The position numbers and the translations under genes were made by a program. 64,000 nucleotides of DNA from an uncultured Rubritalea sp. Its GTDB lineage: Bacteria; Verrucomicrobiota; Verrucomicrobiia; Verrucomicrobiales; Akkermansiaceae. Where the stretch lies: NCBI GenBank assembly GCA_937923145.1, contig CALAJT010000024.1:3563-67562 (forward strand). The letters are read 5' to 3'. Below are positions 1,544 to 64,000 of this stretch, piece after piece. Each line of letters starts with the position of its first letter. Position 1 is the first letter of the stretch. The notes beneath the pieces are model-generated. The model was not told where the DNA came from. It did no database searches and worked only from the letters and a program-made list of their open reading frames with translations.

Positions 1544-4500
1544 TAATTAAATCTTAGAGCAAAGGTGAGGAGTCCACGGGTCTGTGGTGGCTGACCGTTA
1601 TCGAGCTGTGCTGTTAGATACCATCGGTCATGAAGTTTGATTCTAGCTGAAGCGTATTTTTCTCCAGTGAGTTCGTTGACCTCACCTACTTTCAGGTCGA
1701 GATCATCGATGCCGGAGAGAATTTTGCTGAATAGGCGATTACCTCCAGGTCGGTCATTACGTTGTTTTAATTCTAGTAGAAGTATCTGGAGTGTTTTGAA
1801 TGTAGCAACATCTCGATTTTCTAGCCCTGCATTAGTCGTGCCAGTAGCGAGCAGGGTCATGATTTCATTTTCAGGGAGTGCTGGGAGGGAACTGAGGACA
1901 ATTTTGGGGCTATCTGCTGAGCCGTAGACGTAGAGATTTACGTTATGCACACCCACTTGAGATTTACCTTTGATTTCTAGACTAGGAATAAAGCCTTGCC
2001 CTGGCTTGAAGATGATCTTCCCATTGCTGACCGTAAGAACACTAAATGGAAGCTTGGCTCTAACCTTATTAGTTCTGAGTGTGCCTTTTAGGCTAGGATC
2101 TGAGAGTGTACCATTGACCTTAACAGAGCCTTTAATATTCCCGTTGCCGATGTTTCCTTTTATCAGAATAGGGTCAGTAGTCTTCACTAGGACATTTAGT
2201 TTCCATTTGTCAAAAGGAGCGGGGATAGGTAATTTATCCGATTTTTTAGTGTCAATGGATGGTAGTTTGACAGCTCCTACCGCTGATGAAGGAACGCCTA
2301 TGGGGATAAGGTCGATGTCCTTGTAGAAGAGAGATTCTACGATGCCGATGTCGCCACTGATAGTAGCGTCTTCTAGTGTTCCTTTCAGTGTTATATTCGC
2401 ATTAGTCCTAGTTGCTAGGACATCATTTCTATAGATAAGTGCGTGATCTGTAATGAGGTTTACATCGAACACAGGCTTTTCAGGATCATTCACATCGATG
2501 TTAAATTTGGTGATAAATTTGCCGCCATTTAGCTTAGCTGTTAGATCACCTTTGGCGATCATGTTTTGGTCTAGCTGACCTTTGATATTGAGGTTTTTAA
2601 TGTCGTCGATCCCGGCGTCCTTGAGTCTTATTATTGGAAGGTCAGCATTAAAATCGATTGTGTATTCAGGTTTGTCTATAGAGCCTTTGAATACAGCCTT
2701 GGCATCTAACATGCCTTCTAGTTTTTCTACTTGAGGAATAAGTTTCTTGAATTTACCAAGAGGCAATCGCTTAATTTCGGCGACACCTTTGAGCTTTGAA
2801 TTTTTCTTAATGGTAGCTAGTAGGTTATCATCTTCTAGCCACTGGTGGGGGGTGAAGGGTAGTTCTAGATTTAGGGTCACTCGCTTTTCGTTGTTCTCTA
2901 GGATGTCTCCATTCACTTTTAGAAGCTGTTGTTCTGTTTTGAATTTAGAATCGATAGAAATTTCACCAAGACCAAGATCGAAAATGTCGTTCATTTTATC
3001 GATATCTATTATGCCATTAATAGCTGGGTTCTTAGGCGTCCCGCTAAGTTTCATATTCGTCTGGAGAGATCCTTTGAGATCAGGCATTTTACCTGCAGGG
3101 ATGAGTGAGGCTATTTTCTCTAACCTCAGTTTCTCAGTCTCTATACTAAGGACCCAGGGGATCTCTTGGGCGAAGAATTGCTTAGCGTTTATGATGTCGG
3201 AAGTATAAGGGATTTTGCCATTTATACTGCCAATAGATTCTCCATCACGTTTAAGATTAGAGTCGCGAATGTTGACCTCTTTGCCATTCCAGATCAGTGA
3301 TGCGCTGACCACAAGTTCCTCTTGTTCTATAGTTAGCTGCGCTATGTCTAGAGACTTCGGCCAGTCGTAGTTAGTTTGAGTATTAAGTCTTATTACAGCT
3401 TGACCAGGCTGTTTAGCTAGAAGATCACGAACGGCTAGTTTACCGGTATGCTCATCATTTAATAAATCGCCAGATCCGCTCCACTGTATATCTATTTTAT
3501 CTTGTAAGGTGACTGGTAAGTTTAGGCTTTCAGTAAGAGGGTAAAACCAAGCATGGTTTTTAATTTCTGCTAGTAGTTCTAAGTCTCCCGAGTATTTCTG
3601 AGTGTCGATATTGTATTTACCATCTATTTTAAAGAACTTGGCATTTTTATTTGTATTCTCAGGGATTAGTGTGAACTCCAGACTGACGTCTCTTTCATTT
3701 TCTAATGTGGACTCTATTAAGATATTAGGTAGGGGGTGTTTTTCAAAGCTCACTCCACTGAGTTCAACCCGCGCTTTAGTTAAACCTGGTCTGCCATTGG
3801 CTAATGAAGTTTTGATACTGCCTTCAACACTGGTCTGCCCGATGCGGATTCCCTGTGGAAGAGTCACATCATCCGGGATCAGGGCTAGTATTTCTTTAGA
3901 TGCCTGGACATTAAAATCTAAGCTTACGATCGTGTCATCCCACCAAGTAGGATCTGGTATAGCAGCCCACGTGCCCTTGGCATTTAGCATTACTGGAGCA
4001 TTGAGTGCAGTGGCATCGAGCTTCACTTCGTAGTTCTTATCGAATTGCTTAATACTAAGCTTAGTGTCCTTTAGATTAAACGTCTCCCATCTACCAGATT
4101 TCAGTAGTAATAAGCCATCAATATTCCATTCAGGAACGGCGAGGCTTAGATCATTTGTAGGTATGGTGATTTGGAGATCGGAGATAACCGCTTCACCATC
4201 TAATTCGGGTAATTCGATACCTAGTGACTTCAACGTCTTGAGTATTTCGGCAGAGACCATTTCACCAGACTCTAGTTTGATGGTAGCATTCTCAGCGATA
4301 TTCGCAGTGATGATGGCATCGTTAAGAGCTATTGTAGAATTACCTGAAAGACTAGTTTTCCAATCTAGTTGAATCTCTTTTAGAGCGAGATCAGGAACTA
4401 TTTCGAGACGATCTAAAGTCGCTCCATTTTGTAGCCACCCGATCACGGCATCTTGTGCTGGTAATGTGATGCCTGCTCCATTTGAAGCGATCCATTGGTT

Positions 4501-7473: not shown

Positions 7474-8375
7474 AATAATTGAAAAAACTTCACAAATTCG
7501 ACCCATTCTTGGGTCGCTTGATTTAGGCTGATCGGCTTGAACTGAATAATTGTATTAGGTCTAGCTTGAGTAAGAAGTGGGAGATCGATCCTTGCTATAA
7601 TTCCTATTTTAGCATATCCGCCCTGAGTTTGGCGATCGTTGAGTAATACGATGGGATTTCCACTTGGAGGTAGCTGAATGGCTCCTAGGCTGATACCTTC
7701 AGAGATAATTCCTGATAGTGGGGGGAGTGGTTGATCGGCTGTTAGGTTGATTCCCATTCTGTTAGATTGTTGACTGATGGTGAAGTTAGTTTTAATGATG
7801 AGATCTGTCAGTTCTGAATCCTGACCGTCTGTTAAAATGACTCGGAGTTCTTTGATGGAATCGTAGTCTGGGATATATTGACTAGGGGTGCGTTTCAGAC
7901 CTCCGTTGGATTTCGCATTATAGGAATAACCGATCTGTGTTTCAGATTTGAGTAGTTCGCCGATTTGATTTCTTACTACGGTTGAGCTGCTGCCCAGAAC
8001 TTTAGGTGCTTGAAAACCATGCTGGATAGCTAGGTAGGTATGGATACCTTTTTTAGCGTAGTTAAGTTGGAGTGTTTGCCCTTTTTTGATGAAGTGGCAG
8101 CTCCAGTTTGTAACGGGTTTGCTGTCAATTCGCGCATTCATTTCTGCACCTGTTAGAGCGATGAGGCAGTCGACCTCAGCTCTCAGGGCACAGTTACCGT
8201 AGCTGATTTCTATCGTGGTAGCATTGGCATCATTCTCTAACAGATAGTTTGCCCAGCAGTGGGCATGGAGATCGATAGGACCTCCTTGGCTCAAGCCCAT
8301 GTGGGAGTGACCGAATCTTCCTAGGTCTTGGAATTGCATTGCTGGTGCGGCGCGTATTATAGTTAGGCGGCTCAT
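7470..8375 (-). CDS. pxpC: 5-oxoprolinase subunit C (allophanate hydrolase subunit 2-like)
   Basis: QDLGRFG, IEISYG, SNRMG and DRQTQGGYAKIG motifs. Overlaps pxpB by ATGA. Confidence 0.9.
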   Translation of the reverse strand: MSRLTIIRAAPAMQFQDLGRFGHSHMGLSQGGPIDLHAHCWANYLLENDANATTIEISYGNCALRAEVDCLIALTGAEMNARIDSKPVTNWSCHFIKKGQTLQLNYAKKGIHTYLAIQHGFQAPKVLGSSSTVVRNQIGELLKSETQIGYSYNAKSNGGLKRTPSQYIPDYDSIKELRVILTDGQDSELTDLIIKTNFTISQQSNRMGINLTADQPLPPLSGIISEGISLGAIQLPPSGNPIVLLNDRQTQGGYAKIGIIARIDLPLLTQARPNTIIQFKPISLNQATQEWVEFVKFFQLF

Positions 8376-41372: not shown

Positions 41373-43388
41373 TTACTGAGAAAGTTGCTGAGATTTTCCT
41401 GATGTAAGCTCCCAGAGCAGGATACTGCCATCGTTGTGACCAGTGAGAGCGCGAGTGCCGTCATGAGTGAGAGCAGATGCTATTGGTAAGGCTGGCGCAT
41501 CAGAAACGGTGCTTAGCTTTGTCCCATCAGTCTTCCATAAACGTAGAGCACGATCACGACCTGTGGTGAATAGGGTGCCATTGGGAAGATATTCCACATT
41601 TAGTGCTCCAGTGAGCCGAGTGTAGCGGTCAGTAGTTTTCATTTTATGTGCAGTGACAGCACGGAGAGGGAAGCCATCTTTCATTGACCAGAGTACTAGC
41701 TTTCCACCTTCACCGGTAGTTGCGAGAACTTCTCCATCTGGACGCCAGGCGATGTCAGTGATAGCTTCTTTATGCTCGGATAGACTGAAAACAATACCGC
41801 CAGTTTCAGCTTCCCAGACGTGAATGCCACCATTGCGGTCGCCTGTCGCTAGTAATTTTCCATCTGGGCTGAAGCGCATTGCGGTGACCCAGTCTGTATG
41901 CTTTGCGATACGGTGTTTTAATTTTCCATCTGCAGTAGTATGGATCTTGATGTTTTTACTAGGTCCACTTAAAGCGATCAGGGAATGATCTGGACTGATG
42001 TCCGCAGCTAGTACTACGTCTTGTTCATCTCCGATAGTGGCTTGAAGCTCACCGGTTTTTACATCGTATAGATTCACAGCTCCTGAGTAAGCACCTTTTC
42101 CACCTGCAGCTAGAAGTAAATTACCGTTGCGAGAAAATGTGAGGTGGTGAATGTTTCCGAGATCGAAAGGTAGAGCACCTGCTCGTGCAAGCTGAGACAC
42201 AGAATTACGTGCGATTTTATTTAGTTCATCATTAGTTAATGCACGGGAGTATATACGGAAATCATCGATACCGCCTTTGAAGTTTACTCCGTTTTTAACA
42301 CCGGCTAGGGTGTAGGGAGTTCTGGATTTTAAGAATTTTTCAAAGCTATCATTCGCCGGTTGTCTAGAGACCTCACTACCTCCAATATAAGTGACAAATT
42401 CTGATCCATTAAAGCTCATGGCGACGTGCGTCCAGAGATTAGTAGGGAATGTGCCTATGCGTCCCATGAAGACGCTTTTTTTATCTTGATCACGGTAGTT
42501 GAGTCTTAGTGTCCAACTGTCACCCTTAGGTTCTAAGAACAGACGGAAGACGTCATTACCAAATATATTTGGTGATCCTTTGTTTTCTGCATTGCTAGCG
42601 GGTAGAAGCCATGTGGAGATGGTAAATCCTTTTTCGAGATTGATTGTATCTGCTTGTTTCGGCAATTCAACTGGCTTGCCTGTAGCCTTTAGTGCTGCCC
42701 CGCTAACTTTTTTCAAATCTCCATTGTCAAAGGTTTCACGGATGATGAGATCTTCTTTAGCAACAGGGGTGAAATTATCTGCCTCTACCGCTGGGGGCAT
42801 AGGGGAATATAGGTGTATTTCATTAAGTCCACTCACCGCATATACATCTGCCCAAGGGCTAGTTGCTATTGAGAGAACAGGGGCTTTTTCTGTCTTATGT
42901 GTTGGCAATCCTTTAGGAACAGCGACTACATTTGGGCGATCACTAGAACCACTAGTGACATCAAATGATACGTCACGTAGAGCGCTTTCGCCTCCAGCAT
43001 GTGGTAGTAAACCACCTTTGATCCAGTCGCTAATCAGTGTAATGTTTTTGTCGCTAAGCTTAGGTTCCTCAGGTGGCATCGGCTCGTAGTCCTCGTGGTG
43101 AGTGATAGAGAGCATGAGGGTGCTATTGTCAGGAGTGCCTGCTGTAGCTATAGCATCGCCAGAGCTTCCCTCTAAGAAACTAGCCATAGTAGTGAGGTCA
43201 AGATCAGCTTTTTTCTTATCAGGGTTATGACAGCTGTTGCAGTGTTCCTTAAAGATGGGCTGTATGTCGGTGCGGAAATTGGGAGCTTCTTTAGCAATAA
43301 TAGTTAAAGGTGAAACGCCTAGTGCAACTGTGAGATATAGAAGAGACGAAGAGATCCGCGGTTTAAAGAGATACAGTGAAGATGTCAT
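41373..43388 (-). CDS. Planctomycete-type cytochrome c + LamG-like + WD40 repeat protein
   Basis: CNSCH heme motif, MPP, LISDWIKGG, then FTISTWL...WTHVAMSFNG...IDDFRIYSRAL (LamG), then several WD40 repeats (HTDWVTAMRFSPDG, HKEAITDIAWRPDG). Confidence 0.85.
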   Translation of the reverse strand: MTSSLYLFKPRISSSLLYLTVALGVSPLTIIAKEAPNFRTDIQPIFKEHCNSCHNPDKKKADLDLTTMASFLEGSSGDAIATAGTPDNSTLMLSITHHEDYEPMPPEEPKLSDKNITLISDWIKGGLLPHAGGESALRDVSFDVTSGSSDRPNVVAVPKGLPTHKTEKAPVLSIATSPWADVYAVSGLNEIHLYSPMPPAVEADNFTPVAKEDLIIRETFDNGDLKKVSGAALKATGKPVELPKQADTINLEKGFTISTWLLPASNAENKGSPNIFGNDVFRLFLEPKGDSWTLRLNYRDQDKKSVFMGRIGTFPTNLWTHVAMSFNGSEFVTYIGGSEVSRQPANDSFEKFLKSRTPYTLAGVKNGVNFKGGIDDFRIYSRALTNDELNKIARNSVSQLARAGALPFDLGNIHHLTFSRNGNLLLAAGGKGAYSGAVNLYDVKTGELQATIGDEQDVVLAADISPDHSLIALSGPSKNIKIHTTADGKLKHRIAKHTDWVTAMRFSPDGKLLATGDRNGGIHVWEAETGGIVFSLSEHKEAITDIAWRPDGEVLATTGEGGKLVLWSMKDGFPLRAVTAHKMKTTDRYTRLTGALNVEYLPNGTLFTTGRDRALRLWKTDGTKLSTVSDAPALPIASALTHDGTRALTGHNDGSILLWELTSGKSQQLSQ

Positions 43389-43409
43389 TACAGGTATGAT
43401 TAGAAGTGG

Positions 43410-45875
43410 CTAGTGATTCAGTAAAAATTCAGAGGAGTTCAGGAGTGACCAGAGGATACCGTCATAGTATGTGCGACGGGCTTTTTTGTCCTTAGGGTCA
43501 GGGCGGACAGATAATATGATTTCAAATTCCTCTGGTGTAGGCTTGCGAGTTAGCGCCCGAATGTAGAGGTTCTCAATAATTTGTTTAGCATCTGCCTCAG
43601 ATCCTTCAGGATGCTCTTTTAAAAGATTTTTAATGAGGTTTGTATCTCGTTCGAGAGCAGTCATGATGGTGTTGCCATTTATCAAATGCAGAGACTGCGA
43701 TAAGCTAGAATCTTTTATGGTTTCACAACCACAGACACTAAGTCTTTTAGCTTGGCCGAAGGTGGTGAAGAAGTATTTATTATAAGTGTCACTTGAGTTA
43801 CCTTCACGTAGTGCAATAGCTCGTGTTTCATTAGTTTTTCTGATTTTTGGGATGTTACCCATGGCTGCATTAAGACTGTCAAAAAGAATGTCAGCTCTTG
43901 GACGGCGAAGTGCGGCGTGTGAAAAGAATTCATTATCATCAGCGTTTGAAGGAAGAGTAGATGCCGAGAGCTGGTAAGTAGATGAATTGCAAATATCTCT
44001 GACTAGATCTCGTAAGCTGTATTCATGATCTTCAGCTAGACGACGTCCTAGTTCCTTGAGCAGTGGTCCGTTACTTGGTGGGTTACTGACACGGATGTCA
44101 TCGATAGGTTCTACAATACCTCTTCCAAAGAAGTGTTCCCATGCGCGGTTAGCTAAATTTTCACGGAACAAGGTGTTGTCCGATTTGGTGAGCCAAGTAG
44201 CCAAGATCTTGCGAGCGTCTTTACCTTTCACATCCGGAGCATCACCTCCTAGGAAACGGTGTGGTGCAGGTTCACCATGAAGAAGGTGAGGAGCTGGCTC
44301 TGCATTAATATCTGCGGAGATAAGCATTTCTTCAGCGGAGCGACCCACTTTTCGTTTAATTCCTGTGAAGAACGATGTCCACTGGTAGTAATCGTCCATG
44401 GTCCAGCGGTCGAATGGGTGATTATGGCATTCCGCACAGTTTGTGCGGATACCTAGAGCTACCTGTGCCACGTTTTGACCAAGTATGCTTGGGTTGATTG
44501 TGGTCGATTGCGGAAGCATCGTGTAGAAGTTCGATTCTGGGTTATTATAAGTAGAGCCAGTGCCAGTGATCAGTTTCTCAAAGAGCTTATTGAGAGGGAG
44601 GTCATTGTGGAATTGCTCACGTAACCATTTATAGTATTCTTCACCCGCTTTAGGTGAGGTGCCAAATTGGACATTAGTATCGGTCCGAAGCCTAAGCCAC
44701 TCGCCCCATTTTGTTGTCCAAATATCGGCGAAAGAATCGCGGGAAAGTAGTTCTTCGATTTTCTTTGCACGTCTGTCTGGTGAGTTGTCAGCTAGAAATG
44801 AATGATACTCCTCTGGACTTGGTACAGTGCCGGCAATATCGATAGTGACACGACGAAGGAAATGTTCATCAGTACTGATTGGAGATGGTTGGATACGCAG
44901 TTTTTCTAGTTTGTTGAATACGTATTCATCAATGTAGTTAGAGACAGGTGGTGGGGACCATTCGAGGTTATCATCTTTAGGGAGGACAAAAACCTCAGCT
45001 CCTTCTGTAAAACGGTTAAAACGGGCAAAGACGTGAGCTCCACCAGGGCGGTTTGCTTTAACTTTACCATATTCGTCGATAGAGACTACACCTTCATTAG
45101 AGCTTAGGAATAGACTCCAGTGCGTGACATCTTTTTCAGTTCCGTCGGAGAACGTTGCAATGACCTTAGTATTCTTCATTGCTTCTTCTGGAGAAGAAAA
45201 TTCGAGTAGGGAAGGCTCTACGCGGATGGACTCGGCGTTAGGAGCGTTTTCTAAATCACGTTTGGCTCCATTCGAGACCCAATTAAGTAGCACTTGATAG
45301 TCTGGGTGATCTTTAGTGAAGAGTTCACCTCCAGAGTGCGATACTTCTCCAGTAGCTTTTGATAAAAGTAAGCTTTCCTCAGGAGCAGCTAGGTTGATAC
45401 GGCGTCCAGGGATTTGCTCAGTGATTCTATAGAAATCACCAGGTACATCATAGCCAAATAGAGAGAGCATGAAGCCATCTTTTCCACTCGCAGCACCGTG
45501 ACAGTTTCCTGCATTACAGCCATGTCTAGAGAAGACGGGCAGAACATCATTTTTGAAAGATGGGTTAGGTGTTGATGATCTTTGGACGAGTTTTTCGTGC
45601 GAAGACGAAGATGAAGATGAAGACGAAGCAGGAACTGAAGTGTCCTTAGGGACAGAAACAGTTTTGCTTTTAGAGGATGGGGCTGCCGCTATGGCAGTTG
45701 TTTTAGCTATCGAGTTAGCAACACCTTGATTTAATTGGGTTGATGATTTTGCTGAAGCTTTATTTTCAGCGGTATTTCCTTTGGTCCCTTGATAGATGTA
45801 GCCACCTAGAAAGGATAGGATACATATAGTGATGAGAGATTTTATCTTTGCGGGTGTTGTAAGTGATAGAGCCAT
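43410..45875 (-). CDS. DUF1549/DUF1553 (PSD1) domain protein with Ig-like domain
   Basis: FKNDVLPVFSRHGCNAGNCHG, FLRRVTIDIAG, CAECHNHPFDRW, NRAWEHFFGRG and LLNSSEFLLNH motifs. Confidence 0.9.
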   Translation of the reverse strand: MALSLTTPAKIKSLITICILSFLGGYIYQGTKGNTAENKASAKSSTQLNQGVANSIAKTTAIAAAPSSKSKTVSVPKDTSVPASSSSSSSSSHEKLVQRSSTPNPSFKNDVLPVFSRHGCNAGNCHGAASGKDGFMLSLFGYDVPGDFYRITEQIPGRRINLAAPEESLLLSKATGEVSHSGGELFTKDHPDYQVLLNWVSNGAKRDLENAPNAESIRVEPSLLEFSSPEEAMKNTKVIATFSDGTEKDVTHWSLFLSSNEGVVSIDEYGKVKANRPGGAHVFARFNRFTEGAEVFVLPKDDNLEWSPPPVSNYIDEYVFNKLEKLRIQPSPISTDEHFLRRVTIDIAGTVPSPEEYHSFLADNSPDRRAKKIEELLSRDSFADIWTTKWGEWLRLRTDTNVQFGTSPKAGEEYYKWLREQFHNDLPLNKLFEKLITGTGSTYNNPESNFYTMLPQSTTINPSILGQNVAQVALGIRTNCAECHNHPFDRWTMDDYYQWTSFFTGIKRKVGRSAEEMLISADINAEPAPHLLHGEPAPHRFLGGDAPDVKGKDARKILATWLTKSDNTLFRENLANRAWEHFFGRGIVEPIDDIRVSNPPSNGPLLKELGRRLAEDHEYSLRDLVRDICNSSTYQLSASTLPSNADDNEFFSHAALRRPRADILFDSLNAAMGNIPKIRKTNETRAIALREGNSSDTYNKYFFTTFGQAKRLSVCGCETIKDSSLSQSLHLINGNTIMTALERDTNLIKNLLKEHPEGSEADAKQIIENLYIRALTRKPTPEEFEIILSVRPDPKDKKARRTYYDGILWSLLNSSEFLLNH

Positions 45876-45879
45876 GATT

Positions 45880-47232
45880 TTAAGCTATGATTGAGTCGAT
45901 AGGTTTCCCTTCTTCAATGATTTCCATAGGACGGTCTCCAGAAGCCATTAGCTCTTTGTCTGAATTGATTCCGATGAGTTTGTAGATAGTGCTGTGGAGG
46001 TCTGCAAGAGGCACCCCGTCACTAGCCACTTCTGACGATGTAGTGTCAGAATCACCATAGAAGGCGCCTTTTTTAAGTCCACCACCAGCCATGCCGATAG
46101 AAAATACGCGTGACCAGTGATCGCGTCCCGCTACGTTATTAACCTTAGGAGTGCGTCCAAATTCTGAGGTTACCCAAACGAGTGTGCTGTCTAAGAGACC
46201 GCGTTCTTCGAGGTCTCGTATTAGAGCTGCAAGGGCATTATCAAAGGCTGGCATTTGCTCTTCATAGCTCTTTTTAATATTTGTATGATCATCCCAAGAT
46301 CCGTATTGGAGTGTAACGAAACGTGAACCAGCTTCTACGAGGCGACGCGCGAGTAGCATTCTCATGCCTGCTTCACCACCATATTTACCGAATTTTCCAA
46401 GACCATAATTCTCTTTCGTTTGTTTAGTTTCCTGGGTAATATCAAATGCATCACGAACTGCATCAGAGCTCATCATTTGGTAAGCCTGTTTGTAATAAGC
46501 GTCTAATGTATCAAGAGGTGCTGGATTAGCCTCGATCTTACGGAAGGTATTATTTACCATGTCGCGCATTTTTTGACGCTGCTCAAATTCTTGAAGCGAT
46601 ATGCCAGTAGGCAATCTAAGGTCTCTGACTGCGATTTGTCCGCTGTCCGGTGTGTTTCCTGTAGAGAATGGACCGTATTGAGTATTGAGATAACCAGATT
46701 CTCCACCTAAATCGTTACCGATAGAAATATATCCAGGAAGGGCGCCGCGACGCTCATACTCATGGTTAACTATTGTACCAATGGTCGGGTGCTGGATAGC
46801 AGGGGTCATAGGATAACCACGTAACATATGGTAAGAAGCTTGTTCATGGTCAGGGATTTTTCCAACAACTGAGCGAACTACAGTCATGCGATCAGCGATC
46901 TTAGCAATTTCTGGCCAGATTTCACCGATTTTAATTCCTGGAATAGGAGTCTTATTGATACCAAAAGGACCACGGTATTCAACAGGAGATTCTGGTTTAG
47001 GGTTCCAAGTTTCTTGTGCTGCGATACCGCCAGGAAGAACTATTTGAATTACACTTTTAGCAGGTCCTTGAATGGAGGCGTAGTCTTTCTGAGCAGCTTC
47101 GATACGGAGCATTTGCCCGAGAGTTAAGCCCAGCGCGCTGAGTGAGCCTACTCGGAGGGCATCTCTTCGTGAGTAGTTCTGAAGAGTATTGAAGCCTTGA
47201 CATCCTGAAGTATTATTGCGTTTACGTCTCAT
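45880..47232 (-). CDS. DUF1501 domain protein with Tat-like signal
   Basis: SRRDALRVG twin-arginine motif, LARRLVEAGSRFV, WDDH, SEFGRTPKVN and GRDHW. Confidence 0.92.
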   Translation of the reverse strand: MRRKRNNTSGCQGFNTLQNYSRRDALRVGSLSALGLTLGQMLRIEAAQKDYASIQGPAKSVIQIVLPGGIAAQETWNPKPESPVEYRGPFGINKTPIPGIKIGEIWPEIAKIADRMTVVRSVVGKIPDHEQASYHMLRGYPMTPAIQHPTIGTIVNHEYERRGALPGYISIGNDLGGESGYLNTQYGPFSTGNTPDSGQIAVRDLRLPTGISLQEFEQRQKMRDMVNNTFRKIEANPAPLDTLDAYYKQAYQMMSSDAVRDAFDITQETKQTKENYGLGKFGKYGGEAGMRMLLARRLVEAGSRFVTLQYGSWDDHTNIKKSYEEQMPAFDNALAALIRDLEERGLLDSTLVWVTSEFGRTPKVNNVAGRDHWSRVFSIGMAGGGLKKGAFYGDSDTTSSEVASDGVPLADLHSTIYKLIGINSDKELMASGDRPMEIIEEGKPIDSIIA

Positions 47233-51579: not shown

Positions 51580-52694
51580 ATGAGTTCAAAGCTCACGTCG
51601 CTACAGAAGCTCTCAAAGGAGGAGAAAACTATACAGCAAATCGCTCAAGAAAATGATATTACTCCAACTCAGGTTAGCGCCTGGAAAAAAGAGCTTGAAG
51701 AACGAATGTGTGAAATATTTGAGCGCAAGAATGCATCAGATAAGCAGCTCAAACATCATGAAAAAAGAGGTGGCCATTTAGAGCGTAAAATTGGTCAACT
51801 CGTCATTGAGAAGGAGTTTCTTGAAAAAAAGTGCGAACAGTTGGGGATCGATCTCACCGAAAGACCATGATCGATACTCAACACCCTAAACTCTCGATTC
51901 GTAAGCAATCAGAAATGCTAGGAGTCAACCGCAATAGACTCAAGCCACGTCAATCCAAACACACAGAAGAAGATCACTCTATCATGAAAAAGCTGGATGA
52001 AATATACATGGAATGCCCATTTTATGGTCAACGAAAACTACACTTAGAGCTCCGAGATCACGGTCTCAAAGTAGGTCGGAATCGTGTCAGAAGACTCATG
52101 AGGATCATGGGTATTGAAGCTCTATTACCTAAGCCAAACACTAGTAAGCCCTGTAAAGTCAGTCACATCTACTCGTATTTACTCCGTAATCGCGCGATCG
52201 AAGAAGTGGATGAAGTTTGGCGTGCGGACATTACCTTCATTCCGATGGAAAAAGGACACGCTTACCTCGTTGCGATCATGGACTGGCATAGCCGAGCTGT
52301 GTTTAGTTGGGAAGTCAGTAACACGATGGATAGAAGCTTCTGTGTCCGCGCTCTGAAGTCCGCAATGGCTCTAACAGGGCGTAAACCAAAGATATTTAAC
52401 ACGGATCAAGGTAGCCAGTTTAGCAGTGTTGAATGGACGACTGAGTTGAGCAATAACGGCATTCAAATCAGCATGGACGACAAAGTACGCTCGATGGATA
52501 ATGCATTCATTGAGCGGCTCTGGCGTAGCATCAAATACGAGAAGCTGCGGCTCTGGGGCTACGATAGTGTCTGATATCTTCGAGTTCTAGTCGATGACTG
52601 GATGGAGTTCTATAGCCACCGAAGGAAACATCAAGGCCTGGTATACATTACTCCTTGGTCAATCTACTCTGATCGGCAACAACAAGCCGCATAG
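51580..52694 (+). pseudogene. Degenerate IS3-family element (orfA/orfB)
   Basis: orfA 51580-51870 with an A-AAA-AAG -1 frameshift signal at 51825-51831. orfB has DDE motifs (WRADITF, TDQGSQF, DNAFIERLW). A premature TGA at 52572-52574 is followed in frame by ...FYSHRRKHQGLVYITPW to a TAG near 52694. The orfA 5' end is truncated and frameshifted (EFKAHVATEALK in another frame). No terminal IRs found. Confidence 0.85.
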
Positions 52695-52773
52695 GATGGC
52701 AGTGGCCGTAGTTGGACAACCACAAACCAACACCTCAAGGAAGATCAGCAAATCACTAGGGCATGTTTGCTAA

Positions 52774-53424
52774 TTAGTACTTAATGTATAGAAGGATGGA
52801 GGCTAAGGAAACTATTGCTTTGAATAAATCGTGGTTTTTCTCATATCGTGTTCCTATTCTTCGGAATCGTTTGAGCTTTTGAAATAAGTTTTCTACTTTA
52901 TGCCTTTCTTTGTAGATATGCTTGTCAAATTCAGGAATATTGAGTTTATTTTTTCGGTAGGCTATGACGGAGGTAGAGTTCTGATTGTTCACAAACTCAC
53001 GAATATCGTCGCTGTCATAGCCTGCATCTAATAATGCGAAACTATCTTGCTTTAGATGCCTTTTAAGAAGAGCTGTAGCTTGACTACTATCATGTTTTTC
53101 TCCTCCAGTAATGATGCAACTCAAAGGGTATCCGAGAGCATCGCAAGCCATATGTATCTTAGAGCTGAGTCCTCCTTTTGACTTTCCCATTGCTTGTCTG
53201 TACTGACCTCCTTTTGGATTACTCCCGTCTTGATGAACTCGCATTATGGAGCTATCAATCATCACATATTCGCAATCTGAGAACTCTAAATATAGCTTCT
53301 TAAGAGCATCATCCCAAACGCCTTTAATAATCCATCGCCTGAATTGAGAATAGATTTTACTCCACTTACCAAATTTTTTAGGTAAATCTCTCCATGGAAT
53401 ACCAGTGCGAAGCACAAAGATCAT
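52774..53424 (-). pseudogene. IS5-family transposase, 5' end disrupted
   Basis: LRTGIPWRDLP, IDSS, KIHMACDALG, DAGYDSD and YKERHKVENLFQKLKRFRRIGTRYEK motifs. The upstream coding (YLSTVNWNLLKK) is offset by a frameshift at an A7 run (53495-53501), and no start codon survives next to the IS1595 insertion. Confidence 0.8.
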
Positions 53425-53538
53425 GCCTTCAATATTCAGTTTCTGATTTTTACATTTCCTCCCTCGTCTAGAATTACCGGATCTAGAGGTTATATTTTTT
53501 TAGAAGGTTCCAATTGACTGTTGATAAATATTACTTTA

Positions 53539-54258
53539 GGGGCTGTACTAGCTAAGGGCTCTTTGATTCCTCTCGAACCCATATTTTAAGCTGATTGAGG
53601 AGCTTTTTGTGGTTACCACCATTAAAACGCCATTCGCACTCTTTCAAGAACCAATAAAAGTTTTCTTTTTTGATGCCATTAAACTTCCTCATATGTCTCT
53701 TTGCCTGGTTCCAGAAGTTCTCTATTCCATTGATGTGATTTGCCTTATTTGCAAATAGCTTTGAGTGGTTAATTCTGTGGTGCTCAAAGCCTGCTACATC
53801 CAGAGCATTGTAGCTTCTAAAAGTGTCTGTAAAAACGATGCTATCTGGCTCTACCTTCTCTTCAATAATAGGCATTAAAGTTGCGCTTTTTGCATCGGGT
53901 ATAATTGCAGTGTAAAATCTGCCACCTCTTTTAAGTAATTCAAATACAGCTACTTTTCCTCCTGCTCCACGTCCTCGTTTACCTTTCCTCTTTCCACCAA
54001 AGTAACTTTCATCCATTTCAACTTCACCAGATAGTTTATAACATGGTAATTTACTCGCTATTAGCCTACGTAATCGCATGTAAAAAGTCGTCGCTGTGTG
54101 TTTGTTTACCCCAATGATTTCACCAGCAGCTCTAGCTGTAGTTCCTGCTACAAAGTGAGTGATTAAATCGTTTTGTTTTTTGGCTGAAAGACGGCTTTTT
54201 CTCTGATACATTTTCTTCTAGTTAAGCATGATTTAAATTGCTTAGCTAGTACTGCCCC
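53539..54258 (-). mobile_element. Intact 720-bp IS1595-family (IS1016-group) insertion sequence
   Basis: 18-bp TIRs GGGGCTGTACTAGCTAAG and (rc) GGGGCAGTACTAGCTAAG with 1 mismatch. 8-bp target duplication TTACTTTA at 53531-53538 and 54259-54266. Confidence 0.95.
53552..54211 (-). CDS. IS1595-family (IS1016-like) transposase
   Basis: RKSRLS, EMDESYFGG, RGRGAGGK, TDTFRSY, HINGIENFW and ECEWRFN motifs. The stop lies inside the TIR. Confidence 0.95.
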   Translation of the reverse strand: MYQRKSRLSAKKQNDLITHFVAGTTARAAGEIIGVNKHTATTFYMRLRRLIASKLPCYKLSGEVEMDESYFGGKRKGKRGRGAGGKVAVFELLKRGGRFYTAIIPDAKSATLMPIIEEKVEPDSIVFTDTFRSYNALDVAGFEHHRINHSKLFANKANHINGIENFWNQAKRHMRKFNGIKKENFYWFLKECEWRFNGGNHKKLLNQLKIWVREESKSP

Positions 54259-59877: not shown

Positions 59878-60370
59878 TAAAATCCCTAGATTTGCTGATG
59901 AGAGAGGCTGGTTCATGTCGACTCAGACTGAGGGGCTACCTGTTCAAAATTGGCTGATGCAAAACACGTCATACTCGCACAAGGACACTCTAAGAGGACT
60001 GCACTATCAGTCTTCATATCCTCAGGCTAAATTGATCACCGTTTTAGAAGGCTCGATTACAGACATCGTTTTAGACATAGATCCGCAATCACCTGCCTAT
60101 GGGCAATGGCTAAAATACCAGCTCTCCAATACTGATCCAGATCTACCAAACCAGATCTACATCCCAAATCACTACGCACACGGATTTGTGGTTACCAGTG
60201 ACTCTGCGCTCATAAGTTATCTAACTGATAATACCTATCACCCTGAAGCTGAGCATAGCATTCATCCTTTATCTCCAAGTTTAGATATTTCCTGGGGTGT
60301 TACGGATGCCATACTTTCGGTCAAGGATGCTAATGCTACCCCTTGGGAACCTAAAGATCTCTTGAGCTAA
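59858..60370 (+). CDS. rmlC: dTDP-4-dehydrorhamnose 3,5-epimerase family protein
   Basis: FADERGWF, QNTSYS, TLRGLHYQ, QAKLITV, YIPNHYAHGF and LSVKD motifs. Start at ATG 59858. Confidence 0.9.
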   Translation: MQTPITNKIPRFADERGWFMSTQTEGLPVQNWLMQNTSYSHKDTLRGLHYQSSYPQAKLITVLEGSITDIVLDIDPQSPAYGQWLKYQLSNTDPDLPNQIYIPNHYAHGFVVTSDSALISYLTDNTYHPEAEHSIHPLSPSLDISWGVTDAILSVKDANATPWEPKDLLS

Positions 60371-62223
60371 TGTGTGCTATTTTTGGATGGTTTGGCGCAG
60401 ACACTTCAGAAAACCTTCGAGGTATGGCAGCCACCATGCAGCATAGAGGACCTGATGGAGAAGGCTTTCTGCACACTAGTGAAGTAGCCATTGGCATGAC
60501 CAGATTAGCTATAGTAGATTTAGAAAATGGACAGCAACCATTTCACTCTAACGATCAATCAATCTCGGTGGTCTGCAATGGAGAAATATACAACTTCGCA
60601 GAACTTAAAACACAACTCCTAGAACTAGGACACACATTCCAAACAAATTGTGACTGTGAAATCCTACCAGCAGCCTATCAGCAGTGGGGGATAGACTTTC
60701 TCAACAAACTTAATGGGATGTTCGCAATCGCAATCTACGATCATAGCCAAAATCAACTCACCCTAGCACGTGATCGCTTCGGTCAAAAGCCACTCTACTA
60801 TGCATCGCACAATGGAAATATCTACTTCTCCTCAGAGATAAGAGGATTGCACAAAATAGGTATTCCTAAAGCAATCAATCACTCGGCGATACCATCCTAT
60901 CTCTCTCTTAGATATGTTCCAGAACCAGAGACGATGTTCCAAGACATCAAAATATTACCTGTAGGATCGTTCTTAACAATTGAAAATGAGGTAACTATAA
61001 AGTGCAAAAAGTGGTATCAAATTCCTGTTTCGAAAACAGACTACCCAGATGCTACAACTGAACTCCATGACATCACCCGATTAGCGATTCACTCTGCGCT
61101 GATCTCTGATGTTCCCATCGCACTGCATCTTTCCGCAGGTATAGATTCATCAGTCCTTTTAGCTGAGATTAAAAAAACTGACACACCGATCCAATGTATC
61201 ACCGCAGGATTTGGAGCTAAATCTGATGAGGTAAATGAAGCCGCTGCGCTTTGTAAAAAATATACCCTAGCACATACCGTAGTAGAACTCTGCGCAGACG
61301 ATATCCGCTCATTACCTGATGTCATCTCACAGATGGAACTGCCAGTAGGCGATGCCTTAATACTAGCGTTTGATAGGCTCGCAGAGGCTACTGCTGAAGC
61401 AGGGTGCAAGGTTGCTATCGGAGGTGAAGGGATAGACGAAGCATTTGCAGGTTACTCATTTCATAAGTTCATGATGCTTGGAGAGAAATTGGGAAGTGTA
61501 GGGAGAGCTATCGCAGTCAGGGGACTAGCTCTCACACCAGAGTATATCCTGAATAAACTATCCGCATTTCCTGCCAATCTAGGTAAATCTGGAAGGCTTA
61601 AAATTCAAAACTATCTTCATAGCTATAATTATCTAACAGATTACGAAAAAGGAGTGAACCTACGGACTCTATTTAGTCAGTCTGAGATCAACCAACTAGC
61701 AGTAGTGAAGAACAAAAAAATCACACTGCCAGAGCTAACTCTGAGCAAGGGAGATTTACTAGAGAGCCATCTCAAACATCAATTCGAAAGCTGGATGCAA
61801 GACTGGGCGATTATACGCCAAGAGCGAAACACCATGGCGCATTCAGTAGAATATCGTATGCCGTTTCTAGATCATAGGCTTATCGAATTTGCATTTTCAC
61901 TAGAGAATAAGCAGAAGCTAAACGGACGAGCTGGTAAACATATCTGGCGAAAAATGGCTGCGAAATACTATCCAGAAACTCAGCACAAGCGCACCAAGCA
62001 ACCGTTCTTCTTCCCAACAGAAGAGCCTGCCTATTTCAAAGAAATCACGACGTTGCTAAATTCGACTATCGGTTCAGAAAAGTTTCATCAGCGTAGAATG
62101 TTTGATATGGAGCAGCTCAAGCAACTCCGTGAAACTGCTGAAAGAACCAGAGAGTTTCTCCCTATAAAACAACTTCTCTCTATCGCAATCTTAGAACTCT
62201 GGATGCAGGAACACGATTTATAA
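60370..62223 (+). CDS. asnB: Asparagine synthase-like glutamine amidotransferase (polysaccharide-locus type)
   Basis: MCAIFG, HRGPDGEG, RLAIVD, NGEIYN, RDRFGQKPLYY, SAGIDSS, GEGIDEAFAGY and EYRMPFLDH motifs. Confidence 0.92.
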   Translation: MCAIFGWFGADTSENLRGMAATMQHRGPDGEGFLHTSEVAIGMTRLAIVDLENGQQPFHSNDQSISVVCNGEIYNFAELKTQLLELGHTFQTNCDCEILPAAYQQWGIDFLNKLNGMFAIAIYDHSQNQLTLARDRFGQKPLYYASHNGNIYFSSEIRGLHKIGIPKAINHSAIPSYLSLRYVPEPETMFQDIKILPVGSFLTIENEVTIKCKKWYQIPVSKTDYPDATTELHDITRLAIHSALISDVPIALHLSAGIDSSVLLAEIKKTDTPIQCITAGFGAKSDEVNEAAALCKKYTLAHTVVELCADDIRSLPDVISQMELPVGDALILAFDRLAEATAEAGCKVAIGGEGIDEAFAGYSFHKFMMLGEKLGSVGRAIAVRGLALTPEYILNKLSAFPANLGKSGRLKIQNYLHSYNYLTDYEKGVNLRTLFSQSEINQLAVVKNKKITLPELTLSKGDLLESHLKHQFESWMQDWAIIRQERNTMAHSVEYRMPFLDHRLIEFAFSLENKQKLNGRAGKHIWRKMAAKYYPETQHKRTKQPFFFPTEEPAYFKEITTLLNSTIGSEKFHQRRMFDMEQLKQLRETAERTREFLPIKQLLSIAILELWMQEHDL

Positions 62224-62229
62224 GACATA

Positions 62230-62264
62230 AAAAAGCAATTTAGCACTGAGCTAAATTGCTTTTT
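62230..62264. terminator. Bidirectional intrinsic terminator between asnB and the DsbD gene
   Basis: AAAAAGCAATTTAGC-ACTGA-GCTAAATTGCTTTTT forms a perfect 15-bp inverted repeat. Confidence 0.85.
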
Positions 62265-62288: not shown

Positions 62289-64000
62289 CTAGTCAGAATA
62301 GTTGACTGCATATTTTAAGGCTTTGATTGCATCGCCCGAGGTGGGAGTGCCATTCATGAGAACGCCTGGCATTGATAGATCTGATGGGTAGATGATCATT
62401 AGTGGGATGCCTCCTTCTTTAGTTCTCGCTAATTCTTTTTTCTCAGCAAGTGCATCTTCATCTGTTAGATCGAGTTTGATCTTCTCTACATTGTTAGATG
62501 CTACTAGCTGGTTTACTTCATTGCTTGAGAAGATACTCTTCTCAATGGCTATACAAGTTAGTCACCAATCAGCAGTGTAGTCTAGCCAGACTATTCTCCC
62601 TTCCTTACGCGTATTATCTACCATGGTTGGCTCCCAGCCTGTCCACTCATGATCTATGGCTGCGATCTGACTACGCTCGGTATTCATTGCCTGCCATGCG
62701 AGGTGTCCTGCACCTGTCGCTAGGATGATAGTGAGGGCGAATCCGACTACGTATCTGCGAATTTTCGGAGTAAATCTAGGGGACCATGTGCCGTATACGA
62801 ATGCGGCTGTCGCAAAAATAACTAATGACCAGAGCATGAGTATGATTCCTTCTTCACCAGTTTGCTTGATGAATACAGTGAGCAAGAATACGACTGTGGC
62901 TAGCAGCGGGAACGCCATAGACTTTTTAAAGGTGACCATCCAGTTTCCTGGTCTGGGGAGCTTATCGATAAGTTTAGGGAAGAAGGATAGTATGAGATAC
63001 GGGAAGGCGACTCCTAGCCCAAAGATGGTGAAGAGGAATAACGCAACGATTGCTGATTGTTGCAGAGTATAAGTCATCGCGGTAGCTAATAGAGGTGCTC
63101 CACATGGTGTTGCTATAAGAGTAGTAAGAATACCGCTGAAGAAAGAGCCTTGGTAACCTTTTTTCTGCTGTAAATTTCCCCCAGCACTGGTGAGTGAAGT
63201 TCCTACTTCAAATATACCAAAGAGGTTCATGGCGAAAAGTGCGAGTAATATGATCATGCTACCTACGAAGATCGGACTCTTCATCTGAGAACCCCAGGCA
63301 ATAGCATCACCAGTGGAAGCTTTGATCGCTAGGATAGTTCCTGCGAGTATCCACATAGAAACTAGCACCCCGAGTGTGAATACGAGTCCATGCATTTTGA
63401 TTTTCTTAGGATCATTTCCAGCTAGCTGGGCGAATCCCAGTACCTTAACACCTAAGACAGGGAATACGCAGGGCATAAGATTAAGAATCAATCCGCCTCC
63501 AAAAATGAGTGCCATGGCTAGCAAGAATGTCGTCTCTTCTTTCTTACCGGTTACCTGACCGTCTTTGTCCACGAGATTACCATTTTCGTCTACGAATAAT
63601 TGGTCACGGGGAATTACTACTCCAGCATCATTGACCACGTAACCGTCATCGTTAAGACGACTGATCGGAATGGTTATCACTGGGTTGTCAGGGACTAAGG
63701 CGAGACGTTCTTGCTGTGAACTTTCGGATTTTTCATCAACTGCAACTGTTGGACTTTCAGCTTCGGTCATAGCAGGAGAGCCGATAGAGAATAAAACACC
63801 GTGGACTCCATCGATGACTTTGTGGCTTTCAGAAGTGAAAATACCTGTAAGCTTGCTAGGGACTTCGGCGTCTTCTTTAAGTGCGACAGTAAGTTTGTAT
63901 CCACCGTCTATTACGTCCATTTGATGAGCTTTTTCAATATCGATGATTTTAGCATCGGTGATGAATACTGGCTTCTTAAGTTTGCTCAGATCTTCTTTAG
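62289..64000 (-). CDS. dsbD: DsbD/CcdA-family thiol:disulfide interchange protein with in-frame UGA (putative selenocysteine, UxxC), 5' end beyond the window
   Basis: TM domain Cys motifs LMPCVFPVL and ATPCGAPL. The frame is open from 64000 to the TGA at 62564-62562 and resumes for 90 codons to a TAG at 62291-62289: DYTADW-U-LTCIAIEKSIF...KLDLTD...GGIPLMIIYP, a thioredoxin-like DsbD-gamma domain. The family call is strong; Sec decoding is inferred. Confidence 0.85.
62523..62549 (-). promoter_or_regulatory. Candidate bacterial SECIS hairpin immediately 3' of the in-frame UGA
   Basis: mRNA: UGA CUAACUUGUAUA GC CA UUGAGAAGA-GUA-UCUUCUCAA GC. This is a perfect 9-bp stem with a G-first loop starting 26 nt after the UGA. 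Confidence 0.65.

Follow-up and report, generated by a model that had tools for sequence, protein, structure and literature searches.

A probable selenocysteine insertion element inside a dsbD-family gene of an uncultured Rubritalea

We analysed a 64,000-nucleotide stretch of DNA from an uncultured Rubritalea sp. (assembly GCA_937923145.1, contig CALAJT010000024.1; hereafter the window), the minus strand of which carries a gene for a protein-disulfide reductase of the DsbD family that contains an in-frame UGA codon. Judging from sequence comparison, the hairpin located directly 3' of this codon is very probably a bacterial selenocysteine insertion sequence (bSECIS) within the coding region, which would direct the incorporation of selenocysteine (Sec) at the UGA. 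Among relatives that share the UGA, the stem is maintained as RNA by compensatory and synonymous-site selection.

The hairpin and its gene

On the minus strand the sequence around the UGA reads ...GAU UGG UGA CUA ACU UGU AUA GCC AUU GAG AAG AGU AUC UUC UCA AGC... The UGA itself (62562-62564), the proposed Sec codon, occupies the first position of a UxxC motif (U-L-T-C) in the DsbD gamma/thioredoxin domain, and the resolving Cys of this motif is encoded at +3 by a UGU codon (62553-62555). The initial annotation had claimed a hairpin with 9/9 Watson-Crick pairs downstream of the UGA, and this is exactly what the sequence contains: the arms UUGAGAAGA (62545-62537) and UCUUCUCAA (62533-62525) form a perfect 9-bp stem closed by the triloop GUA (62536-62534), so that the complete hairpin covers 62525-62545. 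RNAfold returns the same structure for a 65-nt segment.

Counting the U of the UGA as position 1, as is done for G23/U24 of E. coli fdhF, the stem comprises positions 20-28 and 32-40 and the loop consists of G29, U30 and A31. The first loop base, G62536, lies 26 nt past the A of the UGA; the offset of +26 previously assigned to it was counted from this A and equals +29 in the fdhF numbering. The spacing between UGA and loop amounts to 25 nt in the window (positions 4-28) and to 24 nt in relatives with a pentaloop. The conserved core of the stem is formed by GAGAAG (positions 22-27, 62538-62543), which encodes Glu-Lys and is paired in 18/18 sequences, and by its partner CUUCUC (positions 33-38, 62527-62532), which provides the last base of an Ile/Val codon, a Phe codon and the first two bases of a Ser codon. 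Both arms enclose the apical region A28-G29-U30-A31-U32 (62533-62537), where A28 and U32 can pair to leave only GUA unpaired.

The isolated 21-nt hairpin folds with -9.0 kcal/mol (z = -3.64) and an extended 27-nt version (62523-62549) with -9.7 kcal/mol (z = -3.75), a value matched by 0/200 shuffles. The extension adds two outer G-C pairs, G62549-C62523 and C62548-G62524, which span a CA bulge (62547-62546); in RNAfold predictions they appear within the 65-nt segment and not in the isolated 27-mer. As the 65-nt segment is unexceptional overall (-13.6 kcal/mol, z = -1.29), the global folding energy is uninformative. A perfect 9-bp hairpin in bSECIS geometry follows 3 of the 2629 TGA trinucleotides of the window, and about 5 distinct perfect 9-bp hairpins are present in it vs 1.9 expected. 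From the single sequence the chance probability is thus roughly p ~1e-3, i.e. the hairpin is moderately unlikely to be fortuitous, and it is the comparative support that is decisive.

Read-through of the UGA yields one protein with the local peptide YTADW*LTC (YTADW-U-LTC). The upstream part (62565-64000) comprises a linker and a DsbD_TM domain (PF02683) with two membrane Cys, which are invariant, while the 5' end with DsbD_N/alpha lies beyond the window; a database copy of the protein (P0001, 690 aa) contains DsbD_N (PF11412) together with DsbD_TM. Downstream of the UGA, 90 codons followed by a TAG stop (62289-62561) provide the rest of the thioredoxin-like gamma domain. Thioredoxin_7 (PF13899) spans the UGA and, like DsbD_TM, scores above its Pfam cut-off. 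When aligned with the E. coli DsbD-gamma structures (1UC7, 2FWE, 4IP1), the UGA coincides with the first Cys of CVAC. The domain composition points to a DsbD-family protein with alpha, beta and gamma domains, a distant member that misses the NCBIfam cut-off: the DsbD model NF001419 scores 130 bits vs a cut-off of 330, the best match is to TsoB (NF045694, 161 bits vs 805), and no dedicated model in the NCBIfam scan claims the protein. The sequence derives from a marine metagenome, and its closest relatives belong to Akkermansiaceae and Rubritalea.

Conservation among UGA-bearing relatives and loss in Cys-bearing ones

TGA is found at the same codon in at least 19 further loci. These derive from Verrucomicrobia (L001-L004, L100, L101 and L104-L110, where L110 is the cultured Rubritalea halochordaticola, BAABRL010000003.1), from Planctomycetes (L005, Mariniblastus; L006, Pirellulaceae) and from metagenomes (L020, L021, L023 and L040). 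The metagenome scan returned mostly distant Cys forms among the matches listed, together with at least four new UGA loci. The codon is TGA in all 20 loci, never TAA or TAG, and TGC or TGT stands at the equivalent position in at least 90 relatives. The Cys at +3 is invariant in 18/18 UGA loci, encoded by TGT in 7 and by TGC in 11. Public annotations end DsbD at the UGA, giving products of 687-739 aa, and the NCBI record of R. halochordaticola is among them; likewise, the 21 closest database proteins all break off after ~80% of the query length, without a thioredoxin domain. A separate ORF of 60-75 aa is sometimes annotated for the remainder beyond the UGA. In complete loci 88-114 in-frame codons remain open after the UGA, and dN/dS in this part is 0.03-0.2, similar to the upstream membrane domain. 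The domain 3' of the UGA is under purifying selection, i.e. it is translated.

The hairpin occurs at the same offset in 18 of the 19 other UGA orthologues, with one of these shifted by 1 nt. Pair and loop statistics are based on an alignment of the 18 UGA loci that are co-linear. In these, each of the six core pairs from 22-38 to 27-33 forms in every sequence (108/108 cases), and G29, U30 and U32 are invariant in 18/18 sequences. A typical relative carries a 7-bp stem with an open pentaloop CGUGU, stem lengths among relatives being 6-7 bp. The 9-bp stem with a triloop is a variant found in the window and in L100, and L109 has the triloop on a 7-bp stem. Only the window/L100 lineage forms pairs 20-40 and 28-32, apart from the occurrence of 28-32 in L109, and pair 21-39 is retained in 11/18 sequences.

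Covariation in UGA orthologues had been proposed as a check of the element, and compensatory changes were found at three core pairs. In L020 pair 24-36 changes from G-C to A-U by two synonymous replacements (GAG>GAA and UUC>UUU), in L108 pair 25-35 changes from A-U to G-C, and in L006 and L021 pair 27-33 is inverted from G-C to C-G. Below the core, L020 also converts pair 21-39 from U-A to C-G, again with both codons remaining synonymous (AAU>AAC and UCA>UCG). The observed covariation score is reached by 0/500 shuffles, and sliding the partners against each other lowers every measure. The comparison confirms the upper 6-7 bp and the loop of the element as originally delimited, while the two outer G-C pairs receive no comparative support and the extension is not conserved. 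Lower-stem pairs are 65% paired, which is no better than in shuffles, and show no excess covariation. We therefore rejected the lower stem and the outer G-C pairs as conserved structure.

As the stem is located within the conserved codons E-K-R/S-V/I-F-S, constraints on RNA and on protein were separated by a synonymous-site test. Codons +7 to +11 exhibit the lowest synonymous entropy in conserved-amino-acid columns, ranking 1 of 237 five-codon windows. For each of these codons, all other columns with its amino acid have higher values, and 0/200000 random draws matched for amino acid were as low. GAG and AAG are nearly fixed in the stem though both count as minor codons in these genes, and the Arg codon in the stem is CGU in 14/14 cases. 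Beyond the stem, codon +16 (62514-62516) is Val GUA in 14/17 sequences, with an entropy (0.83) below that of all other Val columns that lie outside the stem. This bias may point to an additional constraint 3' of the hairpin, though the lower stem is unsupported.

A covariance model of the 23-nt element (R1) scores 32.5 bits at the window site (E = 6e-6) and at most 14.2 bits in the rest of the window. Across 488 kb, R1 matches UGA sites only, with 29-40 bits, the next best hit reaching 14 bits (E = 1.3). In the metagenomic locus L040 (UGA at 2443) the loop CGUGU is found on a 6-bp stem UGAAGC/GCUUCA (2461-2483). This stem lies 1 nt nearer to the UGA and so falls into another reading frame, the encoded peptide being N-E-A-V-C-F-K. 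A 17-nt core, GAGAAGCGUGUCUUCUC, is identical in verrucomicrobial and planctomycete genes, while the thioredoxin domains are only ~36% identical, and synonymous sites are saturated between the DsbD genes of the two groups.

The loss of the hairpin from Cys orthologues had also been put forward as a check, and the hairpin is absent from 90 Cys loci. Six or more contiguous pairs at the hairpin site occur in 0/88 Cys loci scored, and even Cys loci with a near-identical peptide, such as NEKVAFSS, form no stem. The mean local minimum free energy (MFE) is -7.5 in both UGA and Cys loci and does not separate them because the Cys loci are GC-rich. In a neighbour-joining tree the 20 UGA genes fall within one clade, in which a pair of Cys genes, L102 and L103, is nested. 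Bootstrap support is 91-97% for the clade of UGA genes plus L102/L103, and 0/200 for the UGA genes alone. The nested pair likewise lacks the hairpin: at its site L102 (3253-3300) and L103 (3328-3375) read AAUAAAAUCGCUAUUUUCUCC and AAUAAACUCAUCAUCUUCUCC, which fold with 0 kcal/mol, and the peptide EKRV is changed to KIAI and KLII. Their neighbouring genes are different ones (Mg-chelatase-like and TGT). L102 and L103 are probably Sec-to-Cys reversions. The RNA requirement may hold the peptide E-K-R-V-F-S fixed and release it upon reversion to Cys.

Proposed selenocysteine insertion and alternative explanations

We propose that, when a ribosome reaches the UGA (62564-62562), SelB would bind the upper stem-loop 18-35 nt downstream, where the 6-bp core GAGAAG/CUUCUC, part of a 9-bp stem in the window, would expose G29 and U30 in the apical loop. 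SelB carrying Sec-tRNA(Sec) would then deliver it to the A site holding the UGA. Sec would be placed at the start of the UxxC motif of the gamma domain, a thioredoxin-like domain in the periplasm, and 90 more codons would be translated. SelB as the partner, Sec as the inserted residue and the presence of a Sec machinery in the genome are all three inferred, and G29/U30 is the proposed SelB contact by analogy with fdhF. As the UGA occupies the codon of a redox-active Cys and homologues elsewhere carry Cys or UGA at this site, the family constitutes a Sec/Cys pair. The hairpin had been regarded as support for Sec over a nonsense mutation, and all comparative tests favour this view.

A number of observations weigh against a bSECIS. 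The genes selA, selB, selD and tRNA-Sec were not found in the 64-kb window (ARAGORN; Pfam, 40 long ORFs), in which ARAGORN detects no tRNA genes. A weak GTP_EFTU match (Pfam) corresponds to the GTPase domain of FeoB and is not SelB. An Rfam scan of the window at gathering scores gave no match, and the sole hit of a permissive scan of 62400-62700 was a spurious one to a snoRNA (E = 0.51). The UGA-bearing locus L023 shows no hairpin at the homologous place; its sole candidate within 1998-2060 (UGA at 1998), GCCAG-GUU-CUGGC, has the loop G at +47, outside the 16-37 nt of the bSECIS model, and L023 may contain a relocated SECIS or represent a different situation. For some relatives the bare hairpin is no more stable than -5.5 to -7.1 kcal/mol, the 75-nt segments of relatives ranging from -9.8 to -19.9 kcal/mol. 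Independent compensatory events are few, about 4-5, and the single UGA clade implies that the presence of the hairpin reflects one origin and not many. In addition, the architecture deviates from that of the E. coli fdhF SECIS, which has a bulged U17, loop bases G23/U24 contacting SelB and an 11-nt spacing. The stem in the window is without a bulged U, and it is located 6-7 nt further from the UGA, with its base at 17-18 vs 11 nt.

The hairpin could instead promote a read-through of the UGA that does not involve Sec, by pausing or by hindrance of release factor 2 with a near-cognate tRNA (Trp or Cys) decoding the codon, or it could be a general pause or regulatory element of dsbD. The Sec machinery not found in the window would be in line with this, as would the scarcity of TGA stops (2/43, rarer than TAG), which could hint at odd UGA termination, and conservation of a structure alone names no binding partner. 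However, we consider this explanation unlikely. The site is the nucleophilic Cys of CxxC, a classic position of Sec/Cys exchange, where Trp would break up the redox motif. Both the spacing and the invariant GU of the loop fit the SelB-dependent bSECIS model, as summarised in PMC13188914. From marine metagenomes a Sec form (UxxC) of this domain type has been catalogued (PMC2398784), and some Planctomycetes possess full Sec-insertion gene sets (PMC4807772). It is very unlikely, too, that the hairpin is a functionless by-product of a conserved peptide, N-E-K-R/S-V/I-F-S, inherited in one clade. All UGA-bearing genes do belong to one clade, the stem is entirely in conserved codons, and the E-K...F-S residues are present in the Cys-type E. 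coli DsbD as well. Yet no synonymous sites of the gene are more constrained than those of the stem, with minor codons fixed, L020 keeps the stem by paired double-synonymous changes, and L040 retains loop and stem in another reading frame. Moreover, Cys relatives with NEKVAFSS-like peptides form no stem, and the nested Cys pair L102/L103 has neither stem nor peptide.

Two further explanations concern the UGA itself. Every relative is annotated as if the codon were a true stop, sometimes with the separate downstream ORF of 60-75 aa, which would make the gene a nonsense allele, a pseudogene or a split gene and the hairpin a transcript-end or attenuator structure. This is hardly credible given that the exact codon is TGA, never TAA/TAG, in 20 loci and that the downstream frame is open, under purifying selection and in frame with the upstream part. 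The leftover ORFs would encode neither the first half of the thioredoxin fold nor the redox motif within it, and no U-run follows the hairpin, a terminator-like site being located 260 nt further. A genome-wide reassignment of UGA to an amino acid would render the hairpin irrelevant; UGA-to-Trp has been reported in some Verrucomicrobiota (PMC13462651), and TGA stops are rare in the window. We regard reassignment as extremely improbable, since a credible in-frame TGA occurs in only one gene of the 64 kb, the standard code leaves 44 long ORFs uninterrupted, an ATGA stop/start overlap with the next gene contains the TGA stop at 8372, and the UGA position aligns with Cys, not Trp.

A bSECIS that specifies Sec at the UGA would have consequences beyond this gene. 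DsbD is mis-annotated as truncated, without its catalytic gamma domain, in a group of marine Verrucomicrobia and Planctomycetes including Rubritalea halochordaticola, and the proteins in question are most likely full-length selenoproteins. If a Sec-DsbD is indeed made, these organisms need selenium for periplasmic reducing power, for example in cytochrome c maturation and disulfide isomerisation. For SECIS biology the family would provide a controlled comparative case with synonymous compensation, the loop preserved in another frame and a nested reversion from Sec to Cys accompanied by hairpin loss. It would also illustrate how an RNA structure can shape a protein sequence in nature, if the RNA requirement fixes the peptide. 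The consensus, a 6-bp stem with an N-G-U-N-U loop and the loop G at +29, can be used to find selenoprotein genes in bacteria of the Planctomycetes-Verrucomicrobia-Chlamydiae (PVC) group. The understanding of the mechanism is unchanged: this is a well-supported yet ordinary example of a known mechanism, and its value for annotation is practical.

Beyond the hairpin, a perfect 15-bp hairpin (62230-62264) with U/A runs on both sides is situated between the convergent dsbD gene (minus strand) and an asparagine-synthase-like gene (60370-62223, plus strand). It resembles an intrinsic terminator that works in both directions and is common to both genes, and this terminator-like site marks the true 3' end of the dsbD transcript beyond the thioredoxin domain, not at the UGA. 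The 43 long ORFs of the window end with TAA in 27, TAG in 14 and TGA in 2 cases. For a bacterium with 42.6% GC, so few TGA relative to TAG stops are unusual and could reflect a codon bias of the lineage or something about UGA termination. The two TGA stops are the ATGA overlap at 8372 and the end of an rve integrase gene (51831-52574). Two other in-frame TGA candidates, at 4370 (plus strand) and 34848 (minus strand), were dismissed as antisense to real genes (TamB-like, DUF748). The integrase gene is part of an insertion-sequence cluster (51831-54211) with three adjoining transposase or integrase ORFs of different families: rve with HTH_21, DDE_Tnp_1 (IS4/5 type) and an ISXO2-like IS1595 element. 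Genes with PVC signatures are found at 41373-47232, comprising PSCyt1 with WD40 and Laminin_G_3, PSCyt2/PSD1 (DUF1549/DUF1553) and DUF1501. They agree with an origin in Verrucomicrobia or Planctomycetes and, combined with the closest relatives, assign the sequence to Verrucomicrobia.

Relation to known SECIS elements and selenoproteins

We compared the element with Zhang and Gladyshev's bSECISearch model, in the summary given by PMC13188914. According to this summary, the upper stem of a bSECIS measures 4-16 bp and its apical loop 3-9 nt, the first or second loop base, or both, is G with G or U as the usual next base, the UGA-to-loop spacing is 16-37 nt and the MFE is -7.5 kcal/mol or lower; the published loop pattern is N1-G-[G|U]-N-N2 with N1-N2 pairing. 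The hairpin at 62545-62525 agrees with all published geometry criteria. It lies just 3' of an in-frame UGA in one ORF that spans two Pfam domains. Its loop is 3 nt long (5 nt if A28-U32 opens) on a 9-bp stem, compared with 5 nt and 6-7 bp in the relatives. The loop G is followed by U, as it is in L040 with CGUGU, and the window loop fits N1-G-U-N-N2 with A28-U32 as the N1-N2 pair. The spacing in the window is 25 nt, L023 being exceptional with its loop G at +47. The MFE is -9.7 for the 27-nt and -13.6 for the 65-nt segment, the segment length to which the threshold applies being unspecified in the accessible text of the summary. The model is, however, a loose geometric filter that many chance hairpins pass, whereas the strong sequence conservation observed here is atypical of bSECIS elements.

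With the fdhF SECIS the element has in common a short upper stem-loop, an exposed G-U in the loop and the conservation of only the upper part, comparable to the 17-nt minimal element of fdhF. It differs in the position of the loop GU (+29/+30 vs +23/+24), in the A/U-rich stem and in having a pentaloop or triloop vs GGUC, although L108 has GGUCU. The element might represent a distinct, sequence-specific bSECIS type of PVC bacteria defined by a minimal 6-bp A/U-rich stem that has no bulged U and an N-G-U-N-U loop, a suggestion that we regard as tentative. SelB of PVC bacteria could read more sequence than the E. coli paradigm implies, or Sec-DsbD could have moved between phyla.

Some Planctomycetes possess complete gene sets for Sec insertion (PMC4807772), and DsbD is not among the selenoprotein candidates in the accessible part of the list for a Porphyra planctomycete. 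The selenoprotein table of a 2026 review contains no entry with PF02683, PF13899 or PF11412. In the literature searched we met no account of Sec decoding in Verrucomicrobia or Rubritalea, nor of this SECIS, a full-length PVC DsbD selenoprotein or its reversion to Cys.

The domain cd02953 is probably DsbD-gamma, in which case the Sec form of the domain has already been catalogued by the 2008 Global Ocean Sampling (GOS) survey. The survey lists a marine UxxC selenoprotein family, described as thiol:disulfide interchange and thioredoxin-like, with 22 Sec vs 2,098 Cys homologues (PMC2398784). As in the present case, Sec occupies the first position of UxxC, the sequences are marine and metagenomic, and Cys homologues are far commoner. 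In contrast to our analysis, the survey is based on short reads, and the full three-domain membrane protein, its PVC distribution and the SECIS are not described in the part accessible. The 'Thiol:disulfide interchange protein' listed in reviews (PF13098, WP_011366075.1; species of Geobacter and Syntrophus in PMC1794560) appears to be a different protein. TsoB (NF045694) is likewise a selenoprotein on a DsbD-like membrane plus thioredoxin scaffold; however, it has UxxxxU with two Sec and a rhodanese domain, while the window protein has one predicted Sec in UxxC and DsbD_N. With 161 bits vs the cut-off of 805 and a UxxC motif, we rejected membership in TsoB. A Cys-containing protein-disulfide reductase of the same domain order is E. 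coli DsbD (DipZ), which shares DsbD_N, DsbD_TM and gamma, the membrane Cys, the second gamma Cys and the signature ADW-C/U-xxC...EK..FS. The window protein is distinguished from it by low similarity (130 bits vs the cut-off of 330) and by the predicted Sec in place of the first gamma-domain Cys.

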